Below are positions 347-49,711 of a stretch of DNA of 64,000 nt, piece after piece. The notes below the pieces were generated by a model. It was not told the DNA's origin. It saw only the letters and a list, made by a program, of their open reading frames with translations, and searched no databases. How positions within the stretch are numbered: position 1 is the first letter of the stretch; every line of letters starts with the position of its first letter. The stretch lies in the IMG/VR virus record IMGVR_UViG_3300045988_149737; one strand, written 5' to 3'. The position numbers were made by a program, and so were the translations under genes. This stretch comes from a virus (Duplodnaviria; Heunggongvirae; Uroviricota; Caudoviricetes).

Positions 347-365
347 CGCAATTATCTTATTAAGA

Positions 366-378
366 AAACAATTTGTTT
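366..378. promoter_or_regulatory. AAACAA-N-TTGTTT palindromic operator/promoter element upstream of ORF 395 (approximate bounds)
   Basis: aagaaaacaatttgtttaa about 20 nt upstream of the start; member of a dispersed motif family (see findings). Confidence 0.45.
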
Positions 379-394
379 AAAAGGATAAGAAAAC

Positions 395-820
395 ATGACA
401 GCTATTAAGAAACTCTACGATGCCGCAAACGTGGCTCTGGATGTTATTGATGATGAAGTAGCAAAAGGCTTTCCTGAACCTGATTGGGCGCATCAGCTAC
501 GAAACGCTATCGCAGAAATGACCCCACCAGATCCAACCCCCGACGAGACAGACTGGCAGCGATTCATCCGTATGTACGCTCAGGAAATAGGTCCAACGCC
601 AACGGCAGAGCAGGCAATGCTGCTGAAATACTTCAAAGAGGCGGGAGAGGATTTACCAATTGATGACTCAGCATATTGGTTCCACTGCGCATGGCGTAAG
701 TATGACGTGATATTCACACAAGGCATGGGAAGCAAAGATATGGTTGTGTGGCATCTACTCCATATAGACACAGCCGTTGACAGAGTTATTGAACAGTTTT
801 TCCCTAAACAAGAAGATTGA
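395..820 (+). CDS. hypothetical protein (141 aa)
   Basis: ORF preceded by conserved motif and an AAGGA-type RBS. Confidence 0.55.
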   Translation: MTAIKKLYDAANVALDVIDDEVAKGFPEPDWAHQLRNAIAEMTPPDPTPDETDWQRFIRMYAQEIGPTPTAEQAMLLKYFKEAGEDLPIDDSAYWFHCAWRKYDVIFTQGMGSKDMVVWHLLHIDTAVDRVIEQFFPKQED

Positions 821-875
821 TCGCCTATTCATAACTAACAAAATAAGTAAACACTAACCACAAAAGGAAAAACAC

Positions 876-1151
876 ATGAGAGTTTTAGTTCGAATCGTTA
901 CCAGCACTGTCTATGACGTGTTTCCGCTTTTTATGGTCAAAGCCGATGGCCTTAACGACGAAGAAACTGACGCGCTGATCCAGCGTATTCTCGTTGAATA
1001 TACAGGTCATGACGCTGATTCAGTGATGGTTGATGATGATGGTGTTTGTTGGCATAACGGCAACTGTTGGTACGTAGAAGAGACTCAACAAATCAGTGAT
1101 GAAGATGCCGCACATCTTGAGCGTATTTTAAGCATCAGCACTTTTGAGTGA
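876..1151 (+). CDS. hypothetical protein (91 aa)
   Basis: ORF preceded by conserved RBS context aaaggaaaaacacATG. Confidence 0.5.
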   Translation: MRVLVRIVTSTVYDVFPLFMVKADGLNDEETDALIQRILVEYTGHDADSVMVDDDGVCWHNGNCWYVEETQQISDEDAAHLERILSISTFE

Positions 1152-1366
1152 GTTTACAGTAAAATTTATATAAGTTAGTATCTACCTATCATGAAGATTT
1201 TTATTGAATACTTGTTACTCATCGTGTCAATAGCTTTTGTCATCGACTGCATTTTCACTGGTGTCATTCGTAAAGTCTTTTCCCCGGTGAACGACGTAGT
1301 CATAAACGCTTTGGCTATCGTGCTCGTATTTAATTCAGCATTTGATGTAATCAAAGAGGTGGCAGC

Positions 1367-1702
1367 ATGAAGGCCATCCCATTCGCGCTGTTGTTCCTTT
1401 CTTCGATCGTTGTGGCCGACACCACTGTTTATCAGTGTGAAATGTCTGTAGCCGACGTTAAGAATGGCGCTCTTACCGACGTCATAAAAGCACCATATGG
1501 AGCGATGGTCGTAGACAGCGGCGACCAGTTCTATGTTGTGCGTGACGATCGAGTGTTGTCATCCCCATATCTCACAAATCGTAATGGCAAATTAACCGGC
1601 GTCGGAGAAGACCACTTCGTATACAACAAATACAAGGGCTTCTATGGCGTTCACGCTTCTCAGCAAAGCTACCTTTTCGATGACTGCAAGGAGGTTGGAT
1701 AA
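1367..1702 (+). CDS. hypothetical secreted protein (111 aa) with N-terminal signal peptide
   Basis: N-terminus MKAIPFALLFLSSIVVADTT is hydrophobic and signal-peptide-like; RBS gaggtgg upstream. Confidence 0.5.
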   Translation: MKAIPFALLFLSSIVVADTTVYQCEMSVADVKNGALTDVIKAPYGAMVVDSGDQFYVVRDDRVLSSPYLTNRNGKLTGVGEDHFVYNKYKGFYGVHASQQSYLFDDCKEVG

Positions 1703-1914
1703 TGGCATTAACACTGGCAGGTCTGGAAATCGAGAAAACAAGCGGCTACTGGCGTGCTAAGGGTTTCAAGCAGCCTGGCATTCTTGAGCGTCTGGAACGT
1801 GAAGATGGGTATATCGTCCACCAGCGGCGTGAATGGCGTATGTACGATCCAGAAACAGGAAAACTGACTACAAAAGCCGGAACACTTTGGGGTCTGTTGA
1901 AGAAAATACACTAA
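1702..1914 (+). CDS. hypothetical protein (70 aa)
   Basis: ORF overlapping the previous stop (ATAATG coupling). Confidence 0.4.
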   Translation: MALTLAGLEIEKTSGYWRAKGFKQPGILERLEREDGYIVHQRREWRMYDPETGKLTTKAGTLWGLLKKIH

Positions 1915-1920
1915 TAGCAC

Positions 1921-2400: not shown

Positions 2401-2403
2401 GGG

Positions 2404-3459: not shown

Positions 3460-3499
3460 TCCAAATGTCTCTTGTTATTCGACGGCTTTGGTGGCCTTT

Positions 3500-4015: not shown

Positions 4016-4039
4016 CAGACCAGTAACCGCAACGGCTAG

Positions 4040-9066: not shown

Positions 9067-9075
9067 GGAGACTAT

Positions 9076-12034: not shown

Positions 12035-12134
12035 CATATGGTGGGGTATATCCCCACCTTATCTTTGATTTGTAAGCCTTGTTTAAACACATAAGATAAC
12101 AACTTGTTTAAACACATCAAAAAAGGAAAAACAC

Positions 12135-13277
12135 ATGTCATATTCAACGTTCCGTTTGGGTGCTAATGATGCAACCAAAGAGCCTATGTTCCTCGGACAA
12201 TCTGTCAACGTGGCACGTTACGATCAGCAAAAATACCGTGATTTTGAAAAGTTGATTGAACGTCAATTGTCTTTCTTCTGGCGGCCGGAAGAAGTTGATA
12301 TTTCGAGCGATCGTATCGACTTCAACACGAAGCTGCGAGACCACGAACGTCACATTTTTCTGAGCAATCTCCGTTATCAAACGTTACTCGATTCAGTTCA
12401 GGGACGTAGCCCAAATGCAACGCTGCTGCCGCTTATCTCTATTCCTGAACTGGAAACGTGGGTTGAAACATGGTCTTTCTCTGAGACTATCCATAGCCGC
12501 AGCTACACCCACATTATTCGTGGCATGGTGGACGATCCGAGCATTGTTTTTGACGGTATTGTTACGGATGAAGAAATCATCAACCGAGCGATCAGTATCT
12601 CTGCTGAATATGACAGGCTTTATGGGATGACCTGCGAGCGCCAGTCGTTAGGTGAGAAAGAGTTTGAACGTCTGTACGTAAATGAATATGGCTGGGAGCC
12701 ATACCCTTTGCATCGTCAGCTTTTCCGCACGTTGGTGTCCATTAATGCGCTTGAGGCGATCCGTTTCTATGTAAGTTTTGCATGTACGTTTGCCTTTGGC
12801 GAACGGAAGTTGCTTGAGGGTAACACCAAAATTATGCGCTTTATTGCCCGTGATGAAGCTCTGCATTGCGAAGGAACTGAACGCATGATCCGCTTCATGC
12901 GTACCGGTCGCGAAGGTTTATTGTGGAAAGAGATTGCTGCTGATGAAGAAAACGTCATTTACGACACCATGAAATCAGTCGCCGAACAAGAAATGAACTG
13001 GGCAGACTATCTCTTCAAAGACGGTTCGATGATTGGTTTAAACGCGGATATTCTGAAGACCTATGTAAAATACCGAACCAATCTGGCTATGAATCGTCTT
13101 GGCCTGAAGGCTTTATTTCCAGAAGTTACCACAGATCCGCTGGTCTGGATGAACAAGTGGTTGTTAACCGACACACTGCAAATTGCACCACAAGAGGCAG
13201 AGCAAAGCACATATCTGGTAGGTCAGATCGATTCTACCGTGGATAAGGCTTCTCTAAGCCAGTTTGCAGACCTGTAA
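12135..13277 (+). CDS. nrdB: Ribonucleoside-diphosphate reductase small subunit (class I)
   Basis: 380 aa, di-iron/tyrosyl radical family features; directly downstream of nrdA. Confidence 0.85.
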
Positions 13278-14224: not shown

Positions 14225-14394
14225 TTGTAGGTAGTTATCTATCTATGTATATTTAACATGCGTAATAAAACTCTGGAATGACTATTCGTTTTGGTGGCCT
14301 ATGGCCACCATTTTTTTATCTGTCTGGTCTTGTTCTCTCAATGAATGTAAACTCACATGATGAATAAGTAATTACTTATCTTTGTGAGGTTTTT

Positions 14395-22256: not shown

Positions 22257-22310
22257 CGGTTGTTAGTGCATATGCATTGACCGTCTTTTCGTAAGCAATT
22301 CATGTAACTA

Positions 22311-22326
22311 GAAAACAACTTGTTTT
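22311..22326. promoter_or_regulatory. AAACAA-N-TTGTTT element upstream of the TerB-like gene (approximate)
   Basis: tagaaaacaacttgtttta followed by aaaaggaaagcacATG. Confidence 0.45.
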
Positions 22327-22935: not shown

Positions 22936-23039
22936 ACAAGGGCCAAATGGCCCTTGTGTTTCGTTGACCGAAATAGAGAGTTTGCACCTTTACGTTTAGC
23001 TTGCTCCCCTTTTATGCCACATCACAATAAAGCCAATAA

Positions 23040-23054
23040 GAAAACAACTTGTTT
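23040..23054. promoter_or_regulatory. AAACAA-N-TTGTTT element (approximate)
   Basis: aagaaaacaacttgtttaag upstream of ORF 23073. Confidence 0.45.
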
Positions 23055-23072
23055 AAGCATTAGGAAAAACAC

Positions 23073-27531: not shown

Positions 27532-27650
27532 ACGCTACAAATCCTTCTGCGTGAATAAATAAAGGCCATAAGTTGTGGCCTTAAATAAATTGTTTTCTGC
27601 CTTTTCTTATTTGTGAAAATAACCACAACTAGAAAACAACGGAGTTAAGA

Positions 27651-31516: not shown

Positions 31517-31536
31517 TACTGTATGTATATACAGTG
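31517..31536. promoter_or_regulatory. LexA (SOS) box
   Basis: tactgtatgtatatacagtg matches CTGT-N8-ACAG, 17 nt upstream of the umuD'-like ATG. Confidence 0.7.
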
Positions 31537-33080: not shown

Positions 33081-33237
33081 CCCGTCTCCTTTATTTTAAT
33101 TTGCGCAATTGTCGCCTTGTAGTGTACTCCAGCTACGACATTTAATCATTTATGAGAAATGCTGTTATCACATGGCAGACATAAGGCCATTTTGTTACTA
33201 TCAAGCCCCTTTTCACTACAAAGAAGTAATGCCTACT

Positions 33238-35271: not shown

Positions 35272-35290
35272 CTAAACAATCATTCTTCAC

Positions 35291-35318
35291 AATGCCCGGC
35301 AACACGCTGGGCATTTTC
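35291..35318 (+). terminator. Rho-independent terminator after metG
   Basis: atgcccggcaacacgctgggcat followed by tttcat. Confidence 0.5.
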
Positions 35319-35424
35319 ATATAGACACAATCCCTCCTGATTTACACAATCCCTAAAACAATTTGTTTTCTACCTTTTGTTGATTGAGATAATAAGCCAC
35401 ATAAGAAAACAAATTGTTTAGGAG

Positions 35425-35673
35425 ATGAAGATGTTTGGAACAGCAAAAGAAATCATCGAGAAACTGAAAAACTATCCAGAAGACGAACCCTTACTCATGG
35501 TTATGTGGCACAAAGAAGATATTGCTGAAGTAAGGACAGATCTCACTGATGAACAATGCGTACAGGTGATGCAAAAAATCAGACAATGCCATAACGCTGA
35601 TGTCGGCGTTAATTGGGAGGTTATATCCACTACGGCGAATGAGTTGTTTCCAAACGGGGAGAGGGGATGTTAA
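35425..35673 (+). CDS. hypothetical small early protein (82 aa)
   Basis: Preceded by two AAACAA-N-TTGTTT elements and a ggag RBS. Confidence 0.5.
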   Translation: MKMFGTAKEIIEKLKNYPEDEPLLMVMWHKEDIAEVRTDLTDEQCVQVMQKIRQCHNADVGVNWEVISTTANELFPNGERGC

Positions 35674-35966
35674 ATATTACTCAATCCTACCAGGTGGCAT
35701 TGATCAGTTCATCTCATACATCAGAGGAAGATGCTCGCCGATTCATGATCGCAAGCAATGAGCTGGATTGGGTTTCACAAATTGAGTACGGTTGCATAGT
35801 TCACGCCGGGTTACAGGACGATGACTGGAAAGATAACTTGCGTCGATATGGTATATCCGAGGGCGCGATTTCGAACATTCAGAAGGTACTTGATGTAGGC
35901 TTTGACTCTGTACATTTTGATTGTGGCGCACCGGTCGTTGAAGGGCTTGAGTGCTGGAACTGGTAA
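35667..35966 (+). CDS. hypothetical protein (99 aa)
   Basis: Overlapping coupled ORF. Confidence 0.45.
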   Translation: MLNITQSYQVALISSSHTSEEDARRFMIASNELDWVSQIEYGCIVHAGLQDDDWKDNLRRYGISEGAISNIQKVLDVGFDSVHFDCGAPVVEGLECWNW

Positions 35967-36104
35967 ATCTGAAAACATATTCAAACCGTTGATAATGGCG
36001 GTCACAATTTGATTCTTTTCTATAAGAATCCGTTGATCGCCACTACCCCCATTCCATACCCGCAATCACATCCTTAAATTTCAATAAGTTATAGTTGTTT
36101 ATAC

Positions 36105-36985
36105 AATCAAGAAAACAACTGAATAACAGATCAACGAAACATCAACGCTTTCACCCGATTTGGTCTAAAAAATTGACGTTTTCACACATCACTGCTTATA
36201 CCCGTAATCCCACGCAGCAGATAGCGCCACAGCGTCCAAATTTCACCACAGACGACCCAACACACTACCAACAAAAACACACGCTCAAAATCGCTCTCGT
36301 TGCGTTACACAACCATATAAACAACTTATTTTCAGGCATAACAAAACAACTAAATAACACATGTGCCATTACCAAAAACAACCAACCTCTTTATGGCAGG
36401 CTACCGAAAAGACCCACCTCTTCTTCCCAGGCTACCGGACAACCAACCTAACTTTCACAGGCAATCCGAAAACATTCATACGCGCGATACCCACGACACG
36501 CCATTCCCCAAACAGCGAAGAAACACCAGAATCACTGAAACCCCAACGAAGCCTGTAACCGCAAGGATTCTCTCAATCCCAAAAGACACGAAACAGAACA
36601 ATCACGGGAAACGCCATTACCCAATACACGAATAACTACAAAAGCCTTTCACACACTCCAGACAAACAACTCAAACACAATAACGAAAGGAATCGCCCAC
36701 CTGCCATTACTCCATACACGGAGAAGAACAATCACCAAAACGACGAGAACACCCCATAGAAGAACCACTGCAAAACGAACGAAACCACATACACCGACAG
36801 AGAGAACAACACACCCAATTCACCAACAGAAATAGTCGCCGTATAGAACATTCTGGAAGGAGTGAGCATTAACGCCTATAGAGAGGTTGAAACAGATAAA
36901 ACACGAAGAAAACACAACATGTATAGCGAAGAAGCCAGGTATGTATAAGTGGGGAGGGAAGGAGGGGTGTCGCCTCCTTTTTCGT
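36105..36985 (+). ncRNA. Candidate long A+C-rich, G-poor non-coding RNA
   Basis: About 780 nt where the + strand is roughly 75-80 percent A+C (by eye); promoter-like motif at about 36070-36115 upstream and a terminator hairpin aaggaggggtgtcgcctcc plus ttttt at about 36950-36985; no minus-strand ORFs. Confidence 0.25.
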
Positions 36986-37039
36986 ATTTATTCAACTCCT
37001 GATTTTATCCCCCGTAACACCCCTACGGTCAGCCTTCGG

Positions 37040-37190
37040 TCCATACAGGGAAAAGGCTGCATCCCGCTACAGAAACGGCTGGGTTGCCTTCGGGGAACGG
37101 CTGGAGGTTTTCAGGGAAACGGTCGAGTTGCCTGTGTGGATTTCGGGAAAAGGCTCGATGCCGGTTCAGGAACGGCGGCGTACCGGTATA
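37040..37190. repeat. Array of about 6 direct repeats, consensus CAGGGAAACGGCT, at about 22-bp spacing
   Basis: cagggaaaaggctg, cagaaacggctg, cggggaacggctg, cagggaaacggtcg, cgggaaaaggctcg, caggaacggcgg. Confidence 0.5.
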
Positions 37191-37559
37191 GCGTGAGGGA
37201 GAGTTGCGGCTACCCACCTGTAATGTGCGGGAAGAAGAGAGGCGCTAACGTGCAGGCGAACTTACTTACCGCTGGATTCCCTCTGAATGCCCAACTACAG
37301 CGTAATTGTGCCAGACAGCCAACGGGTCACAATCGATTTCAGTAGGTTTTCGGGGAGAGGATTATTCTGCCCACCAGCCACTTTCGGCCACCAAATCAGA
37401 ATAATGTAAAAAGTGTACTCGGTACTGAACCTGAAAACTCACTGCCAAAACAACATTCACCGGAATAAAATCCTTTTTCGCCTTTGCGTTATTGCGATAA
37501 TAACGCCAACAAGAAAACAACATATTTAGACGTTGTAGAAACGAAGTGAGGATGAAGAG

Positions 37560-37778
37560 ATGATTAAGATGCCTGTGACGGTTGAGGTGTGGGGCGTGGA
37601 TTCCCTGGCTGAGTGTCTGGATGCAGTGGGGCCGGAGTTGTACCGCAAGTTGTGGTCGTTCGTCCCGGCAGAAGGGGAATCGCCCAAAGGGAAGGATATC
37701 TGGCACCTGCTGAGTGAAGATGAAAAGCGGGAGCTGGTGGGCGCGGTACACAGCGAGTTCCCGGACGACGAAGATTAA
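37560..37778 (+). CDS. hypothetical small early protein (72 aa)
   Basis: gagg RBS; followed by terminator aggccaccagcacggtggct plus tttt. Confidence 0.5.
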   Translation: MIKMPVTVEVWGVDSLAECLDAVGPELYRKLWSFVPAEGESPKGKDIWHLLSEDEKRELVGAVHSEFPDDED

Positions 37779-37917
37779 GAGTGAGGCCACCAGCACGGTG
37801 GCTTTTGTCGCTATTAACCTCCGGGGCAGCGCAGCACCGTAACGATATACTTTGTGGCCGTTTTCTTACTGGTATTGTTTACGCAATTCAGAAAACATGT
37901 TGTTTAAGGATTGCTTT

Positions 37918-38247
37918 ATGTTTGCAAATATCGACATCAACCAAATCAAGAAATTAACTCAAAAAGAGTTTGATCAGTTTTATGAGTTAGAAGGTTGGTC
38001 TTCCACTCTGATCAATTCGCGGTGGGTGCTTGAGCTGATGACTCGTGATGACGCACCTGCTTTGATGATTTGCGACATGGGTGAAGATGCTGACTTTATG
38101 GATATGAGCGAATTTTGTGTGGACACATACAACCGCAGCCAGAAGTACTACTTCACATGCGATAGCGAAAATGACGTGATTTCTAAGGTCTATCTTCACC
38201 TCGTCCAGCATTGGGACGTTCAGGAGTTTCTTGAGGTATTCGCGTAA
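37918..38247 (+). CDS. hypothetical small early protein (109 aa)
   Basis: Start moved downstream of the promoter motif; terminator aagccagcattgctggctt follows. Confidence 0.5.
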   Translation: MFANIDINQIKKLTQKEFDQFYELEGWSSTLINSRWVLELMTRDDAPALMICDMGEDADFMDMSEFCVDTYNRSQKYYFTCDSENDVISKVYLHLVQHWDVQEFLEVFA

Positions 38248-38375
38248 TCCCAACCAAAGCCAGCATTGCTGGCTTAACTTAATCTGTAGCCGCAGGGAAG
38301 AACCTGCATATCGCTCATGCGCCTGATCAATATGCTTTGTAGCCGTTTTCTTACTGGTATTATTTACGCCATTGA

Positions 38376-38391
38376 GAAAACAAGTTGTTTA
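38376..38391. promoter_or_regulatory. AAACAA-N-TTGTTT element (approximate)
   Basis: gagaaaacaagttgtttacgg about 12 nt upstream of the ATG at 38402. Confidence 0.45.
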
Positions 38392-38401
38392 CGGAGTTGT
38401 G

Positions 38402-38713
38402 ATGAAAAGTTCATTGGTTCTTGGTCTGGACAAAGACCAGAAGAGAAAAGAGAAGCCTGCACTGGTTGCTCAACTAACTTTGCTGGACATCGTTGCCAAT
38501 GGAACATCTATTCGTCTGTTCCGTGAAACAGCGGTGTCTTTCGATAAAAACACCTTTACTCGTTATGTAATGAATGTTCGCCGCCAGCGTGGAAAAGGCT
38601 GGATGGCGTTTCAAAGAATGTGGCCGGAACATCAGCTCGAACTGGCCTTGATGGAAGTTAACCGCGTGGCCCAGCAAGAGATTCAGAGAGCATCAGTGAT
38701 GGCAATAGCCTGA
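38402..38713 (+). CDS. hypothetical small early protein (103 aa)
   Basis: ATG downstream of motif. Confidence 0.5.
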   Translation: MKSSLVLGLDKDQKRKEKPALVAQLTLLDIVANGTSIRLFRETAVSFDKNTFTRYVMNVRRQRGKGWMAFQRMWPEHQLELALMEVNRVAQQEIQRASVMAIA

Positions 38714-38747
38714 TAATGTGCAAGTGGTAATTAGTCGACAGTACGAC

Positions 38748-38778
38748 AGCCCCGCCATCCTTACGGGGCTTTTTTGTT
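38748..38778 (+). terminator. Rho-independent terminator
   Basis: agccccgccatccttacggggct followed by tttttgtttt. Confidence 0.6.
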
Positions 38779-38839
38779 TTGTAAGTACATACTTACGATC
38801 ATAGAATATAAAAATAACCAATACACTACGGAGAGTGAA

Positions 38840-39235
38840 ATGACCGTTAAACGCGAAAAACTGACAGTTGATGTTTACTATGCCTCTGAAACCGCCGAAG
38901 GTAAGAATGTGGCAAAAATCACCGTTGTTACGTACAACACCGAAACTGGTGCCGAAGTACAGGCCAGTACGATCGTGCGTAAAGGTGATGCCTCCGGCGG
39001 CGAGTACGCGACTCAATACCAGTCCATTCTCGATGCAACTGACCCGCTGCTGCTGAAAATCGAGAACTACTTCCGCCAGGTTGATGAAGAGGTGTTTGAA
39101 ACCATGATGAATATGGTTAATTCCGTATTCGCCTCCAGCCTGAACACCAGCACCACCTGGATTGGCCAGTACGGTCTGCGTATTACCTCCGGCATTCCTG
39201 CTGATACCTTAATCCCTGAAAGCGTATTCGCTTAA
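38840..39235 (+). CDS. hypothetical protein (131 aa)
   Basis: Start at ATG with ggagagtg RBS, downstream of the terminator; terminator aatggcgcgtaaaccgcgccatttt follows. Confidence 0.5.
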   Translation: MTVKREKLTVDVYYASETAEGKNVAKITVVTYNTETGAEVQASTIVRKGDASGGEYATQYQSILDATDPLLLKIENYFRQVDEEVFETMMNMVNSVFASSLNTSTTWIGQYGLRITSGIPADTLIPESVFA

Positions 39236-39352
39236 TCCTCTTTAAATGGCGCGTAAACCGCGCCATTTTCTTATGCCCGATAATAATTTGTTTTCTGCCT
39301 TATCTGATTTGTGAAAATGATTTCACTGAAGCAACTTAATAAGGAAACCATC

Positions 39353-39727
39353 ATGGGACTTGATATCTACATCGAGACGCAGCCAAAAAACGATCTGAAT
39401 AATGAGGCATCCAGAAAGCGGGTTGCTCACTTCCGTAAGTTCAATGCGCTCGTTGGGTGGATGGAGCGCAACGTAGGTGAAGTCGAAAATTGTGAGCTTT
39501 TAGAATTAACGATGAATGACATTTGTTTTCTGAAGGCTCATTTGATGCACATAAACGAAAGCAATTGCGAAGAGTACTTGCCTACTCGGGAAGGTTTTTT
39601 CTTCGGCAGTCAGGAGTACGATGAAGGTTACTGGCATGATGTGGGGGAGTTGAAAGAGCTTGTGGAAGATCTGATTAAGAACCACGACTTTCACAATAAC
39701 AGACTGACCTTCTGCGCCTGGTGGTAA
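39353..39727 (+). CDS. hypothetical protein (124 aa)
   Basis: aaggaaacc RBS; preceded by TTTTCTGCC...GTGAAAAT promoter-like motif. Confidence 0.5.
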   Translation: MGLDIYIETQPKNDLNNEASRKRVAHFRKFNALVGWMERNVGEVENCELLELTMNDICFLKAHLMHINESNCEEYLPTREGFFFGSQEYDEGYWHDVGELKELVEDLIKNHDFHNNRLTFCAWW

Positions 39728-39729
39728 AT

Positions 39730-39873
39730 ATGGGCGATTTCAAGAAACGCCTGAAGGAAAGAGCCGAGATGGCCAGAAAGCAAAACGCCTCTTCTGTCAT
39801 CAGATACGCAAGGCAGTTTAGTCGCAACAACAAATCAGTTGAGGAAAAGATCCTTAGCGTAATCGAGCGATAA
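39730..39873 (+). CDS. hypothetical small basic protein (47 aa), below the ORF-track cutoff
   Basis: ATG 3 nt after the previous stop; MGDFKKRLKERAEMARKQ...; terminator agaccaccagcattggtggtct follows. Confidence 0.3.
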   Translation: MGDFKKRLKERAEMARKQNASSVIRYARQFSRNNKSVEEKILSVIER

Positions 39874-40028
39874 TTATTAAGACCACCAGCATTGGTGGTC
39901 TTAAATGACTTTTAATAACCGAAGGTTAATTTTAAACCTGGCTATCAACTTCCAGAACCTTTCTTGTGTATTCAGCCTGAATTAACTTCTTTTCTGCCTT
40001 ATCTACACTGCGATAATTACACCAACAA

Positions 40029-40044
40029 GAAAACAACATGTTTA
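40029..40044. promoter_or_regulatory. AAACAA-N-(A)TGTTT element (approximate)
   Basis: caagaaaacaacatgtttacgc upstream of ORF 40057. Confidence 0.4.
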
Positions 40045-40056
40045 CGCAGTGAGGAT

Positions 40057-40344
40057 ATGCACATGACTGATTTCACCATTACCCCAAAAGCACAAAATGT
40101 ATTCCTTGAATCATGGCTGGACTTGCCGGAAACAGAACAGCAAGAAATGGATCATGTGGAATATGACGAGCAGGTAAGCACGCGATTCTTCCACTTTGAG
40201 GGCTGCGTTTACGATATTGCCGACTTCATGAGAGATGACCGCTTCCCTGGATGGCACGCAAGCTATCCACTTAACGCCTTCGCCATGCTGATGATCCGTG
40301 TGGGTGATTCAGGGGATACCATCGACATCGGTCTGCTCCACTAA
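40057..40344 (+). CDS. hypothetical small early protein (95 aa)
   Basis: gtgaggat RBS; terminator aggccaccagcattggtggcct follows, near-identical to the one at about 39880. Confidence 0.5.
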   Translation: MHMTDFTITPKAQNVFLESWLDLPETEQQEMDHVEYDEQVSTRFFHFEGCVYDIADFMRDDRFPGWHASYPLNAFAMLMIRVGDSGDTIDIGLLH

Positions 40345-40548
40345 AGACTAAGGCCACCAGCATTGGTGGCCTTAAATGACCATCTTGTTTCCCGCAGGCT
40401 AAAAACACCAACCTCTTACCTCCAGGCAACCGACAAACCCACCTGTTCCCGTCCGGCTACCGCAACTTTCCACTTTGACGCCTTATTCGTACAACGATAA
40501 TTAACACCAACAAGAAAACAATTTGTTATTTACGATAAGGAATTAATC

Positions 40549-41031
40549 ATGAATTTTATCGCTACTGTAAACGCACCCGCACATGGCAATATCGCTGTAA
40601 CGTTCTCTGACATTGAAAAACGAGTACTTGGTGCATGGCGCGACAATGAGACGGTAGAACTGTCAGAACAAGAAAAATGCATTATTGCACGCGACATCAT
40701 TGGCAATCGTCGTTACTCGCGGGTATTTGAGAAAGCATATGTGGTAAATTCTGGATTCGGAACGTTCGTCTTCCCGGTACGCTCCGGGCGATTCTGCCAG
40801 TCCAAGCTGATTGAGTTCGCTACGCAGATTTCTGTCTGGATTAAAACTCAATCGTCGTTCAAATTTTCCGACGATGAAGCAGTATCGCAGGGGATGCGGA
40901 TCGCCAACAATGCGATTAAATGCAAAAATATTACGTATACCGCTGGCGTTGACACATGGAAACTGTTTTGCGCTAACTTTATGCTGAATGTATACGCAAG
41001 CAACCGCATCCACATCCTTGATGGCGTGTAA
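40549..41031 (+). CDS. hypothetical protein (160 aa)
   Basis: Preceded by caagaaaacaatttgtt motif. Confidence 0.5.
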   Translation: MNFIATVNAPAHGNIAVTFSDIEKRVLGAWRDNETVELSEQEKCIIARDIIGNRRYSRVFEKAYVVNSGFGTFVFPVRSGRFCQSKLIEFATQISVWIKTQSSFKFSDDEAVSQGMRIANNAIKCKNITYTAGVDTWKLFCANFMLNVYASNRIHILDGV

Positions 41032-41039
41032 CTGAGAAG

Positions 41040-41170
41040 AGGGCCAGAAACGGCCCTTTCTCTATAGCCACCAGCTGCCGCAGGGAAATTTTCAGAAACG
41101 GCGAGGAACGCATTCATGAGCCGACGGGGAACGGCCAGGATTTTTTCGGGAAACGGCTGCATTCGCCTTT
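41040..41170. repeat. Second array of GGGAAACGG-type direct repeats (about 5 units)
   Basis: cagaaacggcc, cagggaaatttt, cagaaacggcg, cggggaacggcc, cgggaaacggctg. Confidence 0.45.
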
Positions 41171-41539
41171 ATATAGAAAAAACATCGGGAAGCTGGTGGA
41201 ATCCAACCAGCGGTTGTCGGACAGGTGAGCGGGGAAAATTATGATGACTTTCGTCGCCTGAGACATCCAGATTTCTTTCGTAGCGTAATCACATATGTGA
41301 TTAAGTGGTGTGATTATGTGAAAAATCACGCGCACATAATACGCGAGCGGATACGGAACAAAACAAAATGCCGATCCGCGCCGACAATTAAACGCGGATC
41401 ATAAAGCAAGAATAAAAGCCAATGATTAACCATACACCATAGCGCAATATAACGCGTTTTAAGCGCGTTAATGTGTTGAGTAATGGGTATGTACTGGTAA
41501 GGATATAAAAGCGCGTCTGTGGCGTTATTTTGGCGCTTA

Positions 41540-41650
41540 TTTTATGTTGTTGGAGTGAGTCAAAGACAATAAAAAAGCGCCATCATTGGCGCGTTATGGT
41601 GGAAGTATTAGAAACGAAAAAAGCGCCCATAGTGGGCGCTAGATTTTATT
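41540..41650. terminator. Cluster of three A-tract/hairpin/T-tract terminators at a convergent transcription boundary
   Basis: agcgcgtctgtggcgtt, agcgccatcattggcgcg, agcgcccatagtgggcgct each flanked by A and T runs; a fourth copy near 41881-41915. Confidence 0.5.
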
Positions 41651-41876
41651 TATGTAAACTGATTTCAAATCCCATTTCTACAAACGCTTTTAACATTAAA
41701 AATATATCAGCGTCATTCACGTCTGCTTTTTTTCGCTCCTGGTCGCTCAATAAGTCAATTTTGCGCGTCGTTTCATCGATAAACTCGACTGCGCGCCCAG
41801 CGTAACCAGCGATCCCAGCGATGCGATTAACAAAATATTCATTGCGCACGTTAACGCCAGAGATAAGAATAAACAT
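41646..41876 (-). CDS. hypothetical protein (76 aa), low-GC
   Basis: Flanked on both sides by near-identical hairpins aaagcgcccatagtgggcgc. Confidence 0.4.
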   Translation of the reverse strand: MFILISGVNVRNEYFVNRIAGIAGYAGRAVEFIDETTRKIDLLSDQERKKADVNDADIFLMLKAFVEMGFEISLHK

Positions 41877-41923
41877 GATTAAGCTCCTTAAAAGCGCCCA
41901 TAGTGGGCGCCAGATTCCATTAA

Positions 41924-42574
41924 TTACGCTTTGAAAGCATCAGCCAGATAGTTATAGAAATCATTTTTAATAAAGCGATATTGCTGCGTACCAGCTTTTG
42001 CGCTTCCCATTCCTTTGACTTTCTCAACAAGTCCAAGACGTTCGCAAAGATTGATAAGCTGGTTGGCTTGAGTGTATCCTGCGTCTAATTTTATTTCGTT
42101 GGCTTTTTTCGCTTCATTCATTAAATCGAAAACAGCGCCATTTGTGAACGTCTCGATCTCGTCGTTAATCATATCGATTAATGCGAATACACGAGATCCG
42201 GACATATCAGCGACGGAATAAACACACTTTCCAGCTTTAATGGATTTAACCAGATAAACCAGTTTTTCCAGAGAGTAACTATTAGCCATTGCATCACGGA
42301 AAAATACTTCTGGCGCTTGTTTGCTTGCTTTGATCGCATAGTAGAAAACAGAGCACAATTTTTCGTCTTCTACAGCGTTTACAACGTTGTTGATGAAGTA
42401 AGCAAGTTTAGTGGTCGCAGCTTGCATATTTGCTTTATCTGCTTTGGTGTGCGTACCATTTTTATAATGTTCGTTATATGTTTGAGTTGCCAGATCTGCT
42501 TTTTCGCGCAGTTCATCGGATACAATGGAAGCAGCTTCAACGATGGATTTTTTAGAAATGATAATGTTAGCCAT
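41924..42574 (-). CDS. hypothetical protein (216 aa), low-GC
   Basis: ORF with AT-rich upstream region. Confidence 0.5.
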   Translation of the reverse strand: MANIIISKKSIVEAASIVSDELREKADLATQTYNEHYKNGTHTKADKANMQAATTKLAYFINNVVNAVEDEKLCSVFYYAIKASKQAPEVFFRDAMANSYSLEKLVYLVKSIKAGKCVYSVADMSGSRVFALIDMINDEIETFTNGAVFDLMNEAKKANEIKLDAGYTQANQLINLCERLGLVEKVKGMGSAKAGTQQYRFIKNDFYNYLADAFKA

Positions 42575-43166: not shown

Positions 43167-43169
43167 AAC

Positions 43170-43772
43170 TCAAAAAGGCAAAATTCGTTCAACCCAATCG
43201 AACAAAACAACTATTTTTCTACCGTTCTCGACACGTAGTGTAACCTGACAAGCATCTGCGCCTGCTGACACCCCCTCAATTTCACGGCCATCCGCCATGT
43301 ACACCCTTATAGATTTGTTTGCTTTGTAGGCTTGGTTGCAAATTGCAAAAAAATCGCGGCGTGATGGCCGATTATCGACATAATCAGGGTGAACTGTTAG
43401 TCGACCTTTGAAATCGTGAGCGATACTGTCAACCACACCTGATTCAATTGTACTAATGCGTTCAAGTGGGAGCCTTATACGATTTTCTTTGTCAAAAGGG
43501 GCTGGGCAAAGGTCAACTTTGTTACGAGATGGCATGAGGCCATAAACGTACATGCAAAACGCCTGGCCATCTTCGAGAGTGACCCTTACAGGAATTTGTT
43601 CTCTGCGCCAGAACATCAGTAGTTTTTCAACGTTAGTGTAATCTCGCGGCCAGAGTTCAGCTTGGATACCGTAGGTAATATCTTTGGTTGTCATGTCATC
43701 ACAGAGTTGTTGGCAGAATGTCGATGTCACCAGAATTGCTGGTGAACACCCTGAACGCTTTTGTGTCTCCAT
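43170..43772 (-). CDS. hypothetical protein (200 aa, start uncertain; an internal Met would give 174 aa ending at 43694)
   Basis: The track start overlaps the upstream lipoprotein gene by about 70 nt. Confidence 0.45.
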   Translation of the reverse strand: METQKRSGCSPAILVTSTFCQQLCDDMTTKDITYGIQAELWPRDYTNVEKLLMFWRREQIPVRVTLEDGQAFCMYVYGLMPSRNKVDLCPAPFDKENRIRLPLERISTIESGVVDSIAHDFKGRLTVHPDYVDNRPSRRDFFAICNQAYKANKSIRVYMADGREIEGVSAGADACQVTLRVENGRKIVVLFDWVERILPF

Positions 43773-44189: not shown

Positions 44190-44468
44190 TTATTTTAATC
44201 TGCTTAATAGCGTTTCGAGATCTTCCTTTGTCATATTAGAGTTCTCATAGATACGCATGATTTTCTCACGAGTCTTAGCGGAAGCCCCGACAGAAGATAT
44301 AACCTTGTCAAAGTCGGCCATTGTCAATTGTTCCAGAATGGTATTTATGACTTCAGCCTTAGACATTTTGATATTTTTTTCTTTTAGTTTCACTTGAAAC
44401 TTTCCAAGTTTGTCATTGGCCTTATCAGACAATGCTACCTGACAGTAAGTTGTTTTCTTTTCACTCAT
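44190..44468 (-). CDS. hypothetical protein (92 aa), possible ribbon-helix-helix DNA-binding protein
   Basis: Coupled downstream of the helicase; N-terminal beta-strand-like TTYCQVALSDKANDKL. Confidence 0.4.
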   Translation of the reverse strand: MSEKKTTYCQVALSDKANDKLGKFQVKLKEKNIKMSKAEVINTILEQLTMADFDKVISSVGASAKTREKIMRIYENSNMTKEDLETLLSRLK

Positions 44469-44470
44469 AA

Positions 44471-46030: not shown

Positions 46031-46094
46031 AAACCTCTTTCCTTAGTGCCTTTTGTATGTTATTTGGCTATTATAATAAGTAAGTGATTACTTA

Positions 46095-46793
46095 GTGGAT
46101 TGTAGCAATAAAATGGATGTAAAAATCACGATTTTGCAGGTTGATGTTGCCAACCTTCGCCCGAATACCTGGAACACCAATTCGGTTGGTGCGCAGAATT
46201 TTGAAAAACTGAAAGGTTCTATCGAAAAATTGGGCTTTTTTAAGCCAATTTTGGCTCGTGAACTTGAAGATGGATTTTTTGAAATCCTCGGCGGCGAACA
46301 TCGCTGGCGTGCCGCTATTGAGCAAGGAATTTCAACGGTTCCGGTGCTTTCTGTGGGCAAAATTAGCGATGTCGTAGCTAAACAGATGTCACTGGTGGAC
46401 AACGAGCGATACGGTGAAGACGACCAAATCGCATTGCAACGCTTCATTGAAGAAATTCAGTCAGAACTTGACTATCAACTGTCTGAAATCGCCCCGTATG
46501 ACGACGAAATCTCGATGGTTTTAGCAAAAGAGGCTGCAATCGACCTTGAAGCACTGGAGGCGTTGTCTCGTGGTAGTGATGAGCCTGTCGATACCGACAA
46601 ACGAGAGAAAACCGAACGTGTGGGTGCGGAACATCAGACCATGCGCTTCAAAGTAACTTTCGATGCGTCAGATCGTGTTGCAGAAACCATAAAAAACATC
46701 ATCAAAGAGCAGGCTATTAACACCGGTAATGAAATGGAGAACGCTGGTGAGGCTCTGGTGTGGCTGGTCGACTACTACAAGGAGCGTATGTAA
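46095..46793 (+). CDS. ParB-like N-terminal domain (ParB/Srx nuclease-type) protein, GTG start
   Basis: LRPNTWNTN and ILGGEHRWRAAIEQGISTVPV match the ParB N-domain pattern. Confidence 0.6.
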   Translation: MDCSNKMDVKITILQVDVANLRPNTWNTNSVGAQNFEKLKGSIEKLGFFKPILARELEDGFFEILGGEHRWRAAIEQGISTVPVLSVGKISDVVAKQMSLVDNERYGEDDQIALQRFIEEIQSELDYQLSEIAPYDDEISMVLAKEAAIDLEALEALSRGSDEPVDTDKREKTERVGAEHQTMRFKVTFDASDRVAETIKNIIKEQAINTGNEMENAGEALVWLVDYYKERM

Positions 46794-47461
46794 TGACCAA
46801 AAAGTTTGAAATCGTATATCGCGACCCGGCAGATCTTATTCCCTATGAGATGAATGCCAAAAAGCATGATGAACAGCAGATCAGAGATCTGGCCGCAGCC
46901 ATTAAAAAGCGCGGATTTGACCAGCCAATTACGGTCGATAAGAACGACGTAATTATTACTGGCCACGGCCGCCGTGAGGCTGCAATTTTTGCTGGACTTG
47001 AGCGTGTACCGGTTATTGTTCGTGATGATCTGAGTGATGACGAGGTACGTGCAAAGCGCCTTGAAGATAACCGACTTGCCAGCATTGATTACGATGCAAT
47101 TAAGCTACAGAAAGAGCTTGAGTCGCTTGTTCTGGACGATATCGAGGTTTTCGGCTTTGAAGAGCGTGAGTTGAATGTTCTTGTTGGCAGTATGACAGAA
47201 GAAATGGACACCGACTCGCTAGTTATCGATCTTGGCGAAGAAACTAAACGACAGAAGGATGAACACACCGAGATCAGTCGCGAAGTTGCAGCGGAAGAAG
47301 TACGTGTTGTCGACGTATTGGGCTTTAAAACGCTTCCTGCTGGCTCTGCCATTGTTGTTGGTGATTTGCTTGCCCACATGGAAGAAATGACGGGAGAAAG
47401 CGGGGTAGACGCATTTGTGGCATATGCGGAGAAGATCTCTTCCGGGGAGATGGCTGCATGA
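46793..47461 (+). CDS. Second ParB-like N-terminal domain protein
   Basis: ITGHGRREAAIFAGLERVPVIV; start moved to the ATG overlapping the previous stop (TAATG). Confidence 0.6.
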   Translation: MTKKFEIVYRDPADLIPYEMNAKKHDEQQIRDLAAAIKKRGFDQPITVDKNDVIITGHGRREAAIFAGLERVPVIVRDDLSDDEVRAKRLEDNRLASIDYDAIKLQKELESLVLDDIEVFGFEERELNVLVGSMTEEMDTDSLVIDLGEETKRQKDEHTEISREVAAEEVRVVDVLGFKTLPAGSAIVVGDLLAHMEEMTGESGVDAFVAYAEKISSGEMAA

Positions 47462-48096
47462 GCAAATACATCATCAACGTATCGTTTCAGACTCGCGTAA
47501 ATAAAACCACGCGCACGCTGGAAATCGCCGAGTCGTTCGGGCTTGGTCTGGACGAAAAAGAGTGGGCGCTTTACGACAATCTGGAGCTGGAAGTAAAGCA
47601 GGGCGATGTGGTGTACATCACCGGCCAATCCGGTTCAGGTAAATCCGTTGTGTTGCGCGAGCTGCAACGCCAGATGAAGGATGAAGGGCTTTCTGTAGCT
47701 TCTATTGATGACTTTACCTTCGATAATGAGGTTAACGTCATTGATCAACTGGGCAAAACTACCAGTGATGCGCTTGGGTTGTTATCTATGGCCGGATTGA
47801 ATGACGCCTATCTCTTTGTGCGTAAGCCATCCGAGATGTCTGACGGCCAGAAATACCGTCTCAAGATCGCCAAGCTGATCGAGTCCGGCGCGAAAGTCTG
47901 GGCTGCCGACGAATTTGGCGCTGTTCTCGACCGTGTAACCGCCCAGGTTGTGGCGTCGAACCTCCAGCGTGCCGCCCGTAAGGTTGGTGCGACGGTAATG
48001 GTGGCGACGACCCACGAAGACCTGAAGAACGCGCTGCGCCCGGATATGCAGATCACCAAGCACTACAAAGAACGCGTGAAGGTGGAATATGCCTGA
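47458..48096 (+). CDS. Small ABC-type ATPase
   Basis: Walker A GQSGSGKS, signature-like MSDGQKYR, Walker B VWAADE, H-loop TTHE. Confidence 0.6.
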   Translation: MSKYIINVSFQTRVNKTTRTLEIAESFGLGLDEKEWALYDNLELEVKQGDVVYITGQSGSGKSVVLRELQRQMKDEGLSVASIDDFTFDNEVNVIDQLGKTTSDALGLLSMAGLNDAYLFVRKPSEMSDGQKYRLKIAKLIESGAKVWAADEFGAVLDRVTAQVVASNLQRAARKVGATVMVATTHEDLKNALRPDMQITKHYKERVKVEYA

Positions 48097-48343
48097 TTTG
48101 AAGATCGTAGAGCTGAAGCCATCGAAAGAGGCTGACAACAACAACGTTGAAGTCATCCGCCTGCTGGAAGAAGCACTCCAGTACGCCAGAGAAGGCAAAA
48201 GCCAGAGCCTGGCACTGCTGATGATCAACAACGACGGCAGTGTGCTGGATTGCTGGCATAACGGTGGGCGTCCATACGTCATGGTTGGGGCGATGGAATC
48301 GCTTCGCCTGGACTTCATCAATGCCAATATCGAGCGTAGGTGA
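48089..48343 (+). CDS. hypothetical protein (84 aa)
   Basis: Coupled ORF. Confidence 0.4.
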   Translation: MPDLKIVELKPSKEADNNNVEVIRLLEEALQYAREGKSQSLALLMINNDGSVLDCWHNGGRPYVMVGAMESLRLDFINANIERR

Positions 48344-49239
48344 TCGACATGACAGGCATCATCATCAAACGCTACCGCCCGGAAGAGTTCCCGCGTCATC
48401 TGGACTTTCTGGAGCGTATGACCGTTACCAAAGGCACGGTTGAAGACTGGCACGCGCTGAAGTCGCTGCACTACAAGACGGATGGTAAGCCGTTCGCGCC
48501 AACGTATTATCGCTGCGAACTGGACGACCGGCTGGTGGGCGTAGTGGTTATGGCTTACCCGAAACTGCTGCTGGCGCCTCGCCATCGCATGTTTCCTAAG
48601 CTGAAGCCAACCACCAATACCACCGTGGCCAACCAGTATTGGGGCCGGTACGTGAACAACAACTTTGCCGTGATCAGCCGTTCCGTTGTTGACACTCAGT
48701 ACCGCGGTGTCGGCGTCTCCTATCGAATGATTAACCTGGTTAGCAGGATGCACGACCGGCCAATCATCGAGATCCAGTCGTCGATGAGCAAATACAACCC
48801 GTTCGCCATGAAAGCAGGGTTCCAGTTCATCCGTCCGGAGCGTCCGAAGAGCTATGAGAGTGCGTTGCGCGTCTTCCAGCGTCATTTCCGTTCTGACCCT
48901 GGCGACAACGAAGCGATCGTCAAAGAGCTGTTCGCCATGAGTGAGTCTCGCCGTCGTCGTGCGCTGCGTGATCTGGTCGCTGACTACCACAAGAACAGTT
49001 CCCTGGCCAAAGCCGGGCGTAATCGTGGCACGACGATTCAGGACATTGCCGACAGCCTGGTGGACGAGGCCAGCATTGTGAAGCTGCTCAAGGACATTCA
49101 CAACCTGAGCTTTACGTCTCCGTTGTATGGTGTGTACCGAAACCCTGACTTTGGTCGTCGACTGCCTGACACGCTGCCACTGCTGGCATTCGACAAACAA
49201 CCTTTGGATAAACCGTTAGAAATTGCTTTACCGGCATAA
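48340..49239 (+). CDS. hypothetical protein (299 aa); weak GNAT-like motif
   Basis: Coupled ORF; QYRGVGVSYRMINLV loosely resembles the GNAT acetyl-CoA-binding motif. Confidence 0.45.
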   Translation: MIDMTGIIIKRYRPEEFPRHLDFLERMTVTKGTVEDWHALKSLHYKTDGKPFAPTYYRCELDDRLVGVVVMAYPKLLLAPRHRMFPKLKPTTNTTVANQYWGRYVNNNFAVISRSVVDTQYRGVGVSYRMINLVSRMHDRPIIEIQSSMSKYNPFAMKAGFQFIRPERPKSYESALRVFQRHFRSDPGDNEAIVKELFAMSESRRRRALRDLVADYHKNSSLAKAGRNRGTTIQDIADSLVDEASIVKLLKDIHNLSFTSPLYGVYRNPDFGRRLPDTLPLLAFDKQPLDKPLEIALPA

Positions 49240-49248
49240 GGATTTGCC

Positions 49249-49515
49249 ATGACGTTAACCGATAAACAAAAGGACATCATCAAAACGCTCAATCTAGGTT
49301 ATGAGCGAGGTCATCTACTTGATCTGGACGAATTGCTTGAAGTTTTGCCGTACAAGACAACAAAGCAAAGTATCCAGTTCTCAATTCGCGCTCTGATAAA
49401 AAAGGGGCTGGTGGAGAAAGGGCATACGCGCCAACGCATTGACAATCGCTATCACCGCCGAACTCTTGGGTTAACCACTTTAGGTCGAGCCAAAGCGAAG
49501 TTACTGGTGATGTAA
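49249..49515 (+). CDS. hypothetical protein (88 aa), possible winged-helix DNA-binding protein
   Basis: Small basic ORF followed by a large palindrome. Confidence 0.4.
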   Translation: MTLTDKQKDIIKTLNLGYERGHLLDLDELLEVLPYKTTKQSIQFSIRALIKKGLVEKGHTRQRIDNRYHRRTLGLTTLGRAKAKLLVM

Positions 49516-49539
49516 TCGGTCTGGGAGCTTATTTAAAGA

Positions 49540-49594
49540 CCTGCTTCTGTATATATAAATAATAAGTAACTTATTAAATATATACGGAAGCAGG
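49540..49594. other. Long AT-loop palindrome (copy 2 of 2), nested in a larger inverted repeat (about 49519-49616)
   Basis: cctgcttctgtatatataaat...atatatacggaagcagg; outer arms ggtctggg / cccagacc. Confidence 0.5.
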
Positions 49595-49657
49595 CTTAAT
49601 AAGACATGCCCAGACCTAATTAAACACCCCAGAAAACAAGTTGGTTAGCAGATGCAG

Positions 49658-49670
49658 TAAACAAGTTGTT
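49658..49670. promoter_or_regulatory. AAACAA-N-TTGTTT element upstream of the packaging/structural operon (approximate)
   Basis: gtaaacaagttgttttag, with a partial second site agaaaacaagttgg about 25 nt upstream. Confidence 0.4.
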
Positions 49671-49711
49671 TTAGAGCGCATGGACGCGCTCTGTGTGTTT
49701 TAGAGGGATCT

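Follow-up and report, generated by a model that had tools for sequence, protein, structure and literature searches.

A dispersed palindrome phased to the promoters of an SSU5-like phage-plasmid and its probable role as a repressor operator

The window analyzed here is a stretch of 64,000 nucleotides from the virus record IMGVR_UViG_3300045988_149737, and contains many copies of a 13-bp palindrome, AAACAA-N-TTGTTT, which we term motif 1. The motif itself, its enrichment, its phasing to the -10 hexamers of promoters, its conservation among relatives, and the silence in the lysogen of the genes behind it were all observed. We propose that a dimeric phage repressor probably uses motif 1, an integral part of a set of sigma-70 promoters, as its operator and thereby silences lytic and accessory genes. 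By its sequence, the window is an SSU5-like phage-plasmid approximately 97% identical to Cyrano/pLF82. In a megablast search, positions 34000-42000 matched Escherichia phage Cyrano (pLF82, OV696614) best, with 96.9% identity over 92% of the query; the lower-ranked matches were to other E. coli SSU5-like phage-plasmids, and then to Salmonella phage SSU5 and Klebsiella relatives, with lower coverage.

Occurrence, promoter phasing, and conservation of motif 1

The core AAACAANTTGTTT (AAACAA-N-TTGTTT) matched the window exactly at 7 positions against 0.02 expected, and at 14 positions against 0.46 expected when one mismatch was allowed (366, 12097, 22313, 23042, 27583, 35356, 35407, 36319, 37893, 38378, 40031, 40516, 49634, and 49659); none of 100 shuffled sequences reached 14. 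All the motif-1 copies were intergenic and located 5' of genes on the plus strand. In an unbiased census of all palindromes with 6-nt arms and a spacer of 0-8 nt, motif 1 ranked first both in the window and in Cyrano, whose whole genome bears 18 sites, including those 5' of parA, of the gene for a DnaB-like helicase, and of cobT, all three being outside the window. A preliminary description of the window had reported this dispersed palindrome, and its claim is borne out by the counts above. The coordinates given there denote the same sites, numbered from the AAGA flank; the copy placed at 37513 is present, albeit with two mismatches (AAACAACATATTT).

A weight matrix built from ten sites revealed the conserved unit to be asymmetric, namely AAGAAAACAA-N-TTGTTTA, a near-palindrome of 17-19 bp, the central base of which is free, as all four bases occur there. 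The position of this unit in promoters was examined in 195 distinct AGA-flanked contexts, which were collected from 114 related loci (Cyrano, SSU5, pJN2-26, and IMG/VR contigs) in addition to the window, and represented by 55 contexts more than 20% different from one another, 42 of the downstream type and 13 in inverse orientation. A general sigma-70 scan missed the motif-1 promoters because it demands a good -35 hexamer, and was replaced by a dedicated analysis of -10 phasing. The best -10 hexamer ended 13-14 nt before the palindrome in 27 of the 42 distinct downstream-type promoters, and TG was found at -15/-14 in 19 of them (TGnGATAAT, TGgTATTAT, and TGtGAAAAT). On the other hand, the gap between the palindrome and the start codon ranged from 9 to 38 nt. 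Thus, motif 1 is phased to the promoter and not to the ribosome-binding site, and the fixed position relative to the latter, as previously described, does not hold. If transcription starts approximately 7 nt after the -10 hexamer as predicted, motif 1 would cover about +4 to +21 with its centre near +14.

In the 13 inverse-orientation representatives, the AGA-bearing arm forms TTGTTTTCTGCC and lies over the -35 region of the same kind of promoter. Three promoters of the window bear such an inverted second copy, at 27583, at 35356, and, in a degenerate form, at 39281; the Cyrano counterpart of the last is intact (TAACAATTTGTTTTCT). Where both sites were present, their centre-to-centre distance was exactly 51 bp (35356/35407 and 27583/27634 in the window and 5170/5221 in SSU5). 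The AGA/TCT flank always faces the promoter core, and the paired sites are mirror images of one another around the promoter. The second upstream box TTTTCTGCC...GTGAAAAT that had been noted earlier is real as well (27596, 35369, 39294, and about 39985). It comprises the -35 region and the extended -10 that belong to the same cassette; at 27583, 35356, and 39281, the outer portion of the inverted motif copy supplies its TTTTCT.

The 17-mer recurs at the same promoter position in relatives. There are 10 sites in 20 kb of Salmonella phage SSU5 and 13 in 41 kb of Klebsiella phage pJN2-26, and Cronobacter-type contigs contain it as well. A plasmid of K. pneumoniae subsp. ozaenae, with approximately 67-73% identity at the DNA level, carries 17 sites in 50 kb. 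Yersinia pestis pMT1 (locus L247/L248) bears six intact sites, at 28498, 28523, 37412, 37904, 50067, and 89259, and keeps the pair 5' of the terminase genes though its SSU5-type partition genes have been replaced. Among orthologous promoters (those of the helicase, terS, and the CYRAN_111 family), the flanks and the central base varied and the arms were constant. No palindrome was found at the promoters of the SSU5-like plasmid of Moellerella wisconsensis, in which the only three matches with up to one mismatch were all inside genes. When viral contigs were scanned for the exact pattern, the matches were mostly chance singletons, and the useful yield was a single diverged locus (L016).

Recognition of motif 1 and the operator model

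The dyad had been interpreted in the preliminary description as either the operator of a dimeric regulator or a conserved hairpin in the 5' untranslated region. The operator is the better supported of the two, by the specific arms, the -10 phasing, the mirror-image copies, the conservation, and the silence in the lysogen, whereas the hairpin is not supported by folding, the count of compensatory changes, or Rfam. The best fold of the motif comprised 5 A-U/G-C pairs and a 3-nt loop with a free energy of -0.7 kcal/mol (z-score of -0.6), and five real leaders did not fold better than shuffled versions of themselves (z-scores from +0.1 to +0.5). AAACA-NNN-TGTTT was retained with up to one change in 148 of 186 AGA-flanked contexts from SSU5-like loci, implying that the arms are sequence-specific; in detail, the arms bore no change in 90 contexts, one in 58, and two in 38. 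Among the 38 double changes, only 1 was compensatory in the stem and 37 were not. An Rfam search over the whole window gave no match at the gathering threshold. Finally, the inverted copies over the -35 regions fall outside the predicted transcripts. The arms that do not covary, the negligible fold, and the copies outside the transcript are together the pattern of a protein reading double-stranded DNA sequence-specifically, rather than that of an RNA stem.

Motif 1 might nonetheless be read as RNA, as a transcribed AAGAAAACAA-N-UUGUUUA leader bound by a translational repressor. The candidate for such a repressor is the FljA-family protein encoded by 43170-43772, which matched Flag1_repress with an E-value of 2.5e-84 and bears a weak Hfq-like match in its C-terminal part. 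FljA blocks the translation of fliC mRNA, being a post-transcriptional repressor (PMC2652032). Consistent with recognition in RNA, the motif is located inside the predicted 5' leader and adjoins the Shine-Dalgarno sequence, and all the leader sites have it in one orientation with respect to transcription. Furthermore, the FljA-family gene is present in all the lineages with the motif (E. coli, SSU5, pJN2-26, K. ozaenae, and pMT1) and absent from the palindrome-less Moellerella plasmid, and is expressed in the lysogen under most conditions. These points are to be set against the folding, covariation, and Rfam results above, the spacing that is fixed to the -10 hexamer instead of the ribosome-binding site, and the inverted -35 copies that would not be transcribed. 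A palindrome is not expected for the recognition of single-stranded RNA, and the FljA-like protein of the K. ozaenae lineage is only 33% identical despite the unchanged motif. Altogether, we regard an RNA-level element as unlikely, and it is slightly less likely still that the FljA-family protein reads motif 1 at the RNA level (or at both levels), i.e., that a translational repressor of flagellin was recruited as a global regulator of about fifteen leaders. The FljA-family gene probably silences the flagellin of the host.

The state of the motif-1 genes in a lysogen can be seen in the normalised counts published for every Cyrano gene in the LF82 lysogen (RNA-seq; median 9.8; PMC9928086, supplement file 2). 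The first genes behind motif 1 were at or near background (5.7-25.5), namely terS (7.1), the helicase gene (21), cobT (7.8), nrdB (12.9), and CYRAN_58 (5.7), 85 (7.0), 87 (7.1), 101 (7.5), 105 (12.8), 106 (12.2), 110 (6.7), and 111 (25.5), with the exception of parA (49.8). Most of the lytic genes were likewise at background, and Cyrano is inducible by ciprofloxacin (PMC9928086). Promoters of the TGnGATAAT type are expected to fire in E. coli and yet are silent here. Thus, active repression is the simplest reading of the expression data.

The model that we favour on these grounds, and hold to be probable, is as follows. The motif-1 promoters would be of the sigma-70 type, many with an extended -10, and would drive about 15-18 scattered transcription units. 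In the plasmid-prophage state, motif 1 would be occupied by a dimeric DNA-binding protein that the phage encodes and that may work as a dimer of dimers, and the binding or the escape of RNA polymerase would thereby be blocked. The units silenced in this manner would include the terminase/late operon, and the genes for the DnaB-like helicase, NrdB, CobT, and ParA, together with a TerB-like gene and a series of small accessory genes. Four elements of the model go beyond the observations: where transcription starts, that a protein binds, in which direction it regulates, and which protein it is. As for a host factor, we know of no E. coli regulator with a consensus that fits motif 1. Most likely, motif 1 represents a previously undescribed example of the familiar control by repressor and operator, and not a new mechanism.

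Several points weigh against the operator model. The AGA flank is always on the promoter side, an asymmetry that a symmetric dimer does not require, and the left half stands alone at some promoters (27631 in the window and 45321 in Cyrano). Dependence on an activator would also explain the silence in the lysogen, and each of the named candidate regulators has at least one argument against it (see below). Moreover, in the Moellerella plasmid, the promoter cassette (TTTnnnGCC-N13-CATAAT) and an A-rich leader (AAGAAAAACAAC and AAACAAAAACAACG) persist without the palindrome. Therefore, the left half may be an older feature of the leader, perhaps with a separate role, and the dyad an innovation of the Enterobacteriaceae/Yersinia lineages.

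The solitary half-sites and the Moellerella cassette are also what one would see if there were no dedicated binder at all, and a cassette of promoter and leader had been spread by duplication and recombination and retained for promoter escape, mRNA stability, or translation efficiency. At least seven promoters indeed share TTTnnnGCC-N13-(TG)nGATAAT-N13-AGAAAACAA, often right after a terminator hairpin and flanking small open reading frames (ORFs) between 27.5 and 41 kb. Nevertheless, the 17-mer occurs as well at the promoters of terS, nrdB, the helicase gene, cobT, and parA, in which the upstream sequences are unrelated, and is invariant across lineages with diverged flanks. The inverted copy at a fixed distance of 51 bp is hard to explain by a function in the leader, and strong-looking promoters are silent in the lysogen. 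The spread of a cassette without a binder thus seems to us improbable.

Candidate binding proteins and a second palindrome family

The candidates for the protein that would bind motif 1 were ranked on three grounds: their folds, their expression, and whether relatives possess them. Locus searches with single proteins recovered only close SSU5-like relatives, all of which possess motif 1.

Two small proteins had been put forward as regulators in the preliminary description, and neither was confirmed as the binder. The first is encoded by ORF 49249-49515, the predicted structure of which is a MarR/PadR-like winged helix (predicted local distance difference test score, pLDDT, of 83; Foldseek template modelling scores of 0.70-0.76). 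In favour of this protein is the fold. Two points speak against it: the count of the gene in the lysogen (7.8) is no more than background, and the plasmid of Moellerella, whose promoters lack motif-1 sites, encodes the very same recognition helix (TTKQSxQFSxRAL). A count at background is as expected for a regulator of the lytic phase, and motif 1 could be the site of such a regulator, for instance of this winged-helix protein as an activator, a late shut-off factor, or a part of an antitermination system. The confident model of the fold and the location of the ORF, 120 bp 5' of the paired sites and of the terminator-like hairpin that precedes terS, are in line with this possibility. However, a centre near +14 is unusual for an activator, and the unchanged recognition helix in Moellerella counts here as well. 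We consider a lytic-phase regulator as the reader of motif 1 to be quite unlikely.

The second protein is encoded by ORF 44190-44468, which is well expressed in the lysogen (114) and shows a strand-helix-helix sequence pattern. The monomer model, with a pLDDT of 53, was too poor to confirm a ribbon-helix-helix fold. While the expression is in its favour, the putative DNA-reading N-terminal strand varies (TYCQVALS, IHCQVQLT, and VSCHLKLT) among the lineages with the identical motif.

A further rival is that motif 1 is the operator of the partition protein, in which case the ParG/omega-like CYRAN_29, encoded next to parA outside the window, would use motif 1 to repress its own promoter and would have been co-opted as a global repressor, like KorB or omega. 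In both Cyrano and the K. ozaenae lineage, the promoter of parA bears motif 1, and that of Moellerella has a half-conserved copy. The strand-helix-helix of CYRAN_29 (IKSRTMSxEDE...SRSDVxRAA) is conserved across the Cyrano, K. ozaenae, and Moellerella lineages. The lysogen expresses CYRAN_29 (89), and among the motif-1 genes only parA shows clear expression, as predicted by self-regulation. On the other hand, pMT1 is devoid of this pair of ParA and its partner and yet retains its six intact motif-1 sites, including one 5' of the late operon; in Moellerella, the protein is conserved and the motif is not dispersed. The enrichment of TTGT/ACAA boxes 5' of parA was no greater than that in the neighbouring AT-rich coding DNA. 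Accordingly, we assign only a very small chance to the partition protein as the reader of motif 1.

If the binder is a repressor that regulates itself, its gene would be expected behind a motif-1 promoter. ORF 40549-41031 is always found behind such a promoter, absent from the relative without the motif, and mildly expressed in the lysogen. CYRAN_56, 59, 61, 62, and 111, as well as the FljA-family gene, are present in the K. ozaenae lineage and pMT1 and absent from Moellerella. No function was obtained from Pfam, PHROGs, or PDB for the five CYRAN proteins. Motif-1 promoters precede CYRAN_59-62 and CYRAN_111 too, the arrangement predicted for a repressor under its own control.

The palindrome census uncovered a second family, TAGGTAAGTnnACTTACCTATC (GGTAAGT..ACTTACC; motif 2). 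It is present at 14365, 19200, 21416, 26386, 38782, and 58600 in the window and in twelve copies in Cyrano, and is conserved in the Klebsiella and Moellerella relatives. Motif 2 is located in the spacer between the -35 and -10 hexamers, as exemplified by TTGTAA-17-TAGAAT at 38779-38807, called by the sigma-70 scan. The promoters with motif 2 include those of thyX, dam, and tail genes and the parB/uvsW divergent region.

Motif 2 bears on CYRAN_45, annotated as a CI-like repressor. A perfect motif 2 (GGTAAGTGCTTACC; Cyrano 42606) lies approximately 30 bp from the start of CYRAN_45, and a perfect GGTAAGTACTTACC is found at the same place in Klebsiella pJN2-26, in which the repressor is 58% identical and keeps IGYKN.N.LSLIK.G. 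No motif 1 was found in the intergenic region of CYRAN_45 in Cyrano or pJN2-26. As motif 2, and not motif 1, adjoins its gene in the two lineages, CYRAN_45 was set aside as the motif-1 binder. This repressor appears, from the sequences at its gene, to use motif 2, and motif 1 appears to belong to another protein.

Sites, neighbouring features, and likeness to known systems

The individual sites and the genes of the candidates are listed in Table 1. By the Cyrano annotation, the window runs from the CYRAN_57/58 region through genes for replication and nucleotide metabolism and many small accessory genes; it then crosses the end of the Cyrano record into terminase, head, and tail genes.

Table 1. 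Motif-1 sites and genes of candidate binding proteins in the window
Feature	Position	Strand	Remarks
Motif 1 as putative 19-bp operator, AGAAAACAAGTTGTTTTCT			
Motif-1 site, AGAAAACAATTTGTTTA	363..379	+	16 nt before ORF 395-820 (DUF7238, first gene of a CYRAN_58-62-like operon)
Motif-1 site, AGATAACAACTTGTTTA	12094..12110	+	5' of nrdB (12135-13277)
Motif-1 site	22310..22326	+	5' of TerB/TciA-like gene 22350-22775
Motif-1 site	23039..23055	+	13 nt past CACAAT; 5' of ORF 23073-23642
Inverted upstream-type copy, AAATAAATTGTTTTCT	27583..27598	-	Over the -35 of the ORF 27651-28292 promoter; 51 bp from the downstream half-site
Half-site only, AGAAAACAA	27631..27639	+	13 nt past TGtGAAAAT (27615-27620); ribosome-binding site directly next
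Inverted upstream-type copy, AAACAATTTGTTTTCT	35356..35371	-	Over the -35; exactly 51 bp 5' of site 35407
Motif-1 site	35404..35420	+	13 nt past TGaGATAAT (35388-35393); 11 nt before start codon 35431
One-mismatch copy, AAACAACTTATTT	36319..36331		In A/C-rich stretch without clear genes; strand not assigned, function uncertain
Degenerate site, AGAAAACAACATATTTA	37512..37528	+	13 nt past TGcGATAAT (37496-37501); 5' of ORF 37560-37778
Motif-1 site, AGAAAACATGTTGTTTA	37890..37906	+	14 nt past TGgTATTGT (37873-37878); 12 nt before start 37918
Motif-1 site	38375..38391	+	14 nt past TGgTATTAT (38358-38363); 11 nt before start 38402
Degenerate inverted upstream-type copy, TAATAATTTGTTTTCT	39281..39296	-	Over the -35 of the TGtGAAAAT promoter (39313-39318)
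Motif-1 site	40028..40044	+	13 nt past TGcGATAAT (40012-40017); 5' of start 40063
Motif-1 site	40513..40529	+	14 nt past GATAAT (40496-40501; -35 TTGACG); 5' of ORF 40549-41031
Motif-1 pair, 49634 and 49659, 25 bp apart	49631..49672	+	5' of small terminase gene (terS, 49712); terminator-like hairpin next
160-aa protein, function not assigned	40549..41031	+	Possible self-regulated binder
FljA-family (Flag1_repress) protein	43170..43772	-	Candidate for the RNA-level model
92-aa protein, ribbon-helix-helix-like sequence pattern	44190..44468	-	Weak binder candidate
Winged-helix candidate, 88 aa (MarR/PadR-like)	49249..49515	+	Judged an unlikely binder

At the late operon, a terminator-like hairpin, AGAGCGCATGGACGCGCTCT followed by GTGTGTTTT (49673-49701), lies between the double motif-1 site and the start codon of terS. 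Relatives from Klebsiella, those of the Cronobacter type, and pMT1 retain this hairpin, and antitermination may control the late operon. The Cyrano record begins directly 5' of the terS promoter, at a long inverted repeat (cctgcttctgtatatataaataataagt/aacttattaaatatatacggaagcagg; about 49533-49594) that could be a bidirectional terminator or a site related to packaging.

Motif-1 sites had been described on both sides of a host-like segment, and they do bracket it. This segment (31980-35271) encodes a MinD/ParA-like ATPase on the minus strand and a full methionyl-tRNA synthetase on the plus strand. The region of 36000-37450 is A/C-rich (AT skew of 0.21), with no convincing ORF or tandem repeats, and contains motif-1 half-sites at 36110 and 36319; its Cyrano counterpart includes CYRAN_102, which is expressed in the lysogen. 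This region may be a non-coding RNA or a site for replication or partition. Outside the window, CYRAN_43 (Cyrano 40268-40822) is by far the top-expressed gene of the phage-plasmid in the lysogen (approximately 7000 against a median of 10). It encodes a protein of 184 amino acids of a rare PHROG family, the function of which is not assigned, and adjoins the integrase gene.

The LexA box of the host (CTGT-N8-ACAG) was considered and rejected, as motif 1 is unrelated to it. The only good LexA box in the window is the near-consensus TACTGTATGTATATACAGTG at 31517-31536, directly 5' of a gene for a UmuD/HumD-like S24 peptidase (31553-31942) that is well expressed in the LF82 lysogen (148).

Motif 1 resembles the operators of several known systems in general architecture. 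In phage P1, the C1 repressor acts on many dispersed operators, asymmetric 17-mers (ATTGCTCTAATAAATTT) bound by a monomer, and the late genes need the activator Lpa. As with P1 C1, a phage-plasmid here carries one short operator-like sequence at many scattered promoters of lytic and accessory genes, such as those for the helicase and DNA metabolism, which are off in the plasmid-prophage state. In contrast to P1, motif 1 is a 13-bp palindrome with a one-sided AGA flank, and the late operon itself carries a motif-1 site. The C1-type family was not seen among the candidate proteins of the window that were scanned.

The KorB site of RK2/IncP (OB) is a 13-bp palindrome, TTTAGCSGCTAAA, present in 12 copies at varied distances from promoters and recognized by a helix-turn-helix protein of the ParB family. 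Motif 1 is similar to the RK2 KorA/KorB sites in being a 13-bp palindrome of 6-bp arms and a central base, with about a dozen copies at or near promoters, but differs from the KorB site in its unrelated sequence and in its fixed placement, at about +14 or about -38. As for the two ParB_N proteins encoded by 46095-47461 in the window, the promoter of their own operon bears motif 2 and not motif 1.

The location of motif 1 just 3' of the predicted start, with a second site about five helical turns away across the promoter core, recalls the O1 operator of the LacI type, which is centred at +11. This likeness is one of position. The promoter/stem-loop cassettes (PeSLs) in the hyperplastic regions of T4-type phages are similar in that a terminator hairpin, an early-type promoter, and a leader are repeated around small ORFs without assigned functions (27.5-41 kb). 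They differ in that motif 1 is a sequence-specific palindrome 3' of the -10 hexamer, is found at unrelated core-gene promoters too, and has no stable stem-loop. Beyond the general architecture, motif 1 shares no defining feature with the P1 C1, KorA/KorB, or lac systems. The motif-1 sequence differs from those of all three, and the protein probably does as well.

Phage-plasmids of the SSU5-like kind, which comprise the pSLy3, pKpn, SSU5/pHCM2, and pMT1 groups, occur commonly in E. coli, Klebsiella, Salmonella, and Yersinia pestis, and resistance genes are found on some of them. How lysogeny is maintained in these elements is essentially undescribed, and our search of the literature for operators or promoters of SSU5-like elements found no description. 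The present analysis yields a regulatory map with two dispersed families of putative operators, motif 1 at about +14 of approximately 15-18 promoters and motif 2 in the spacer of approximately 12 others. This map suggests a two-tier control of the lytic genes, and also that an operator pair and a terminator in the leader together guard the late operon.

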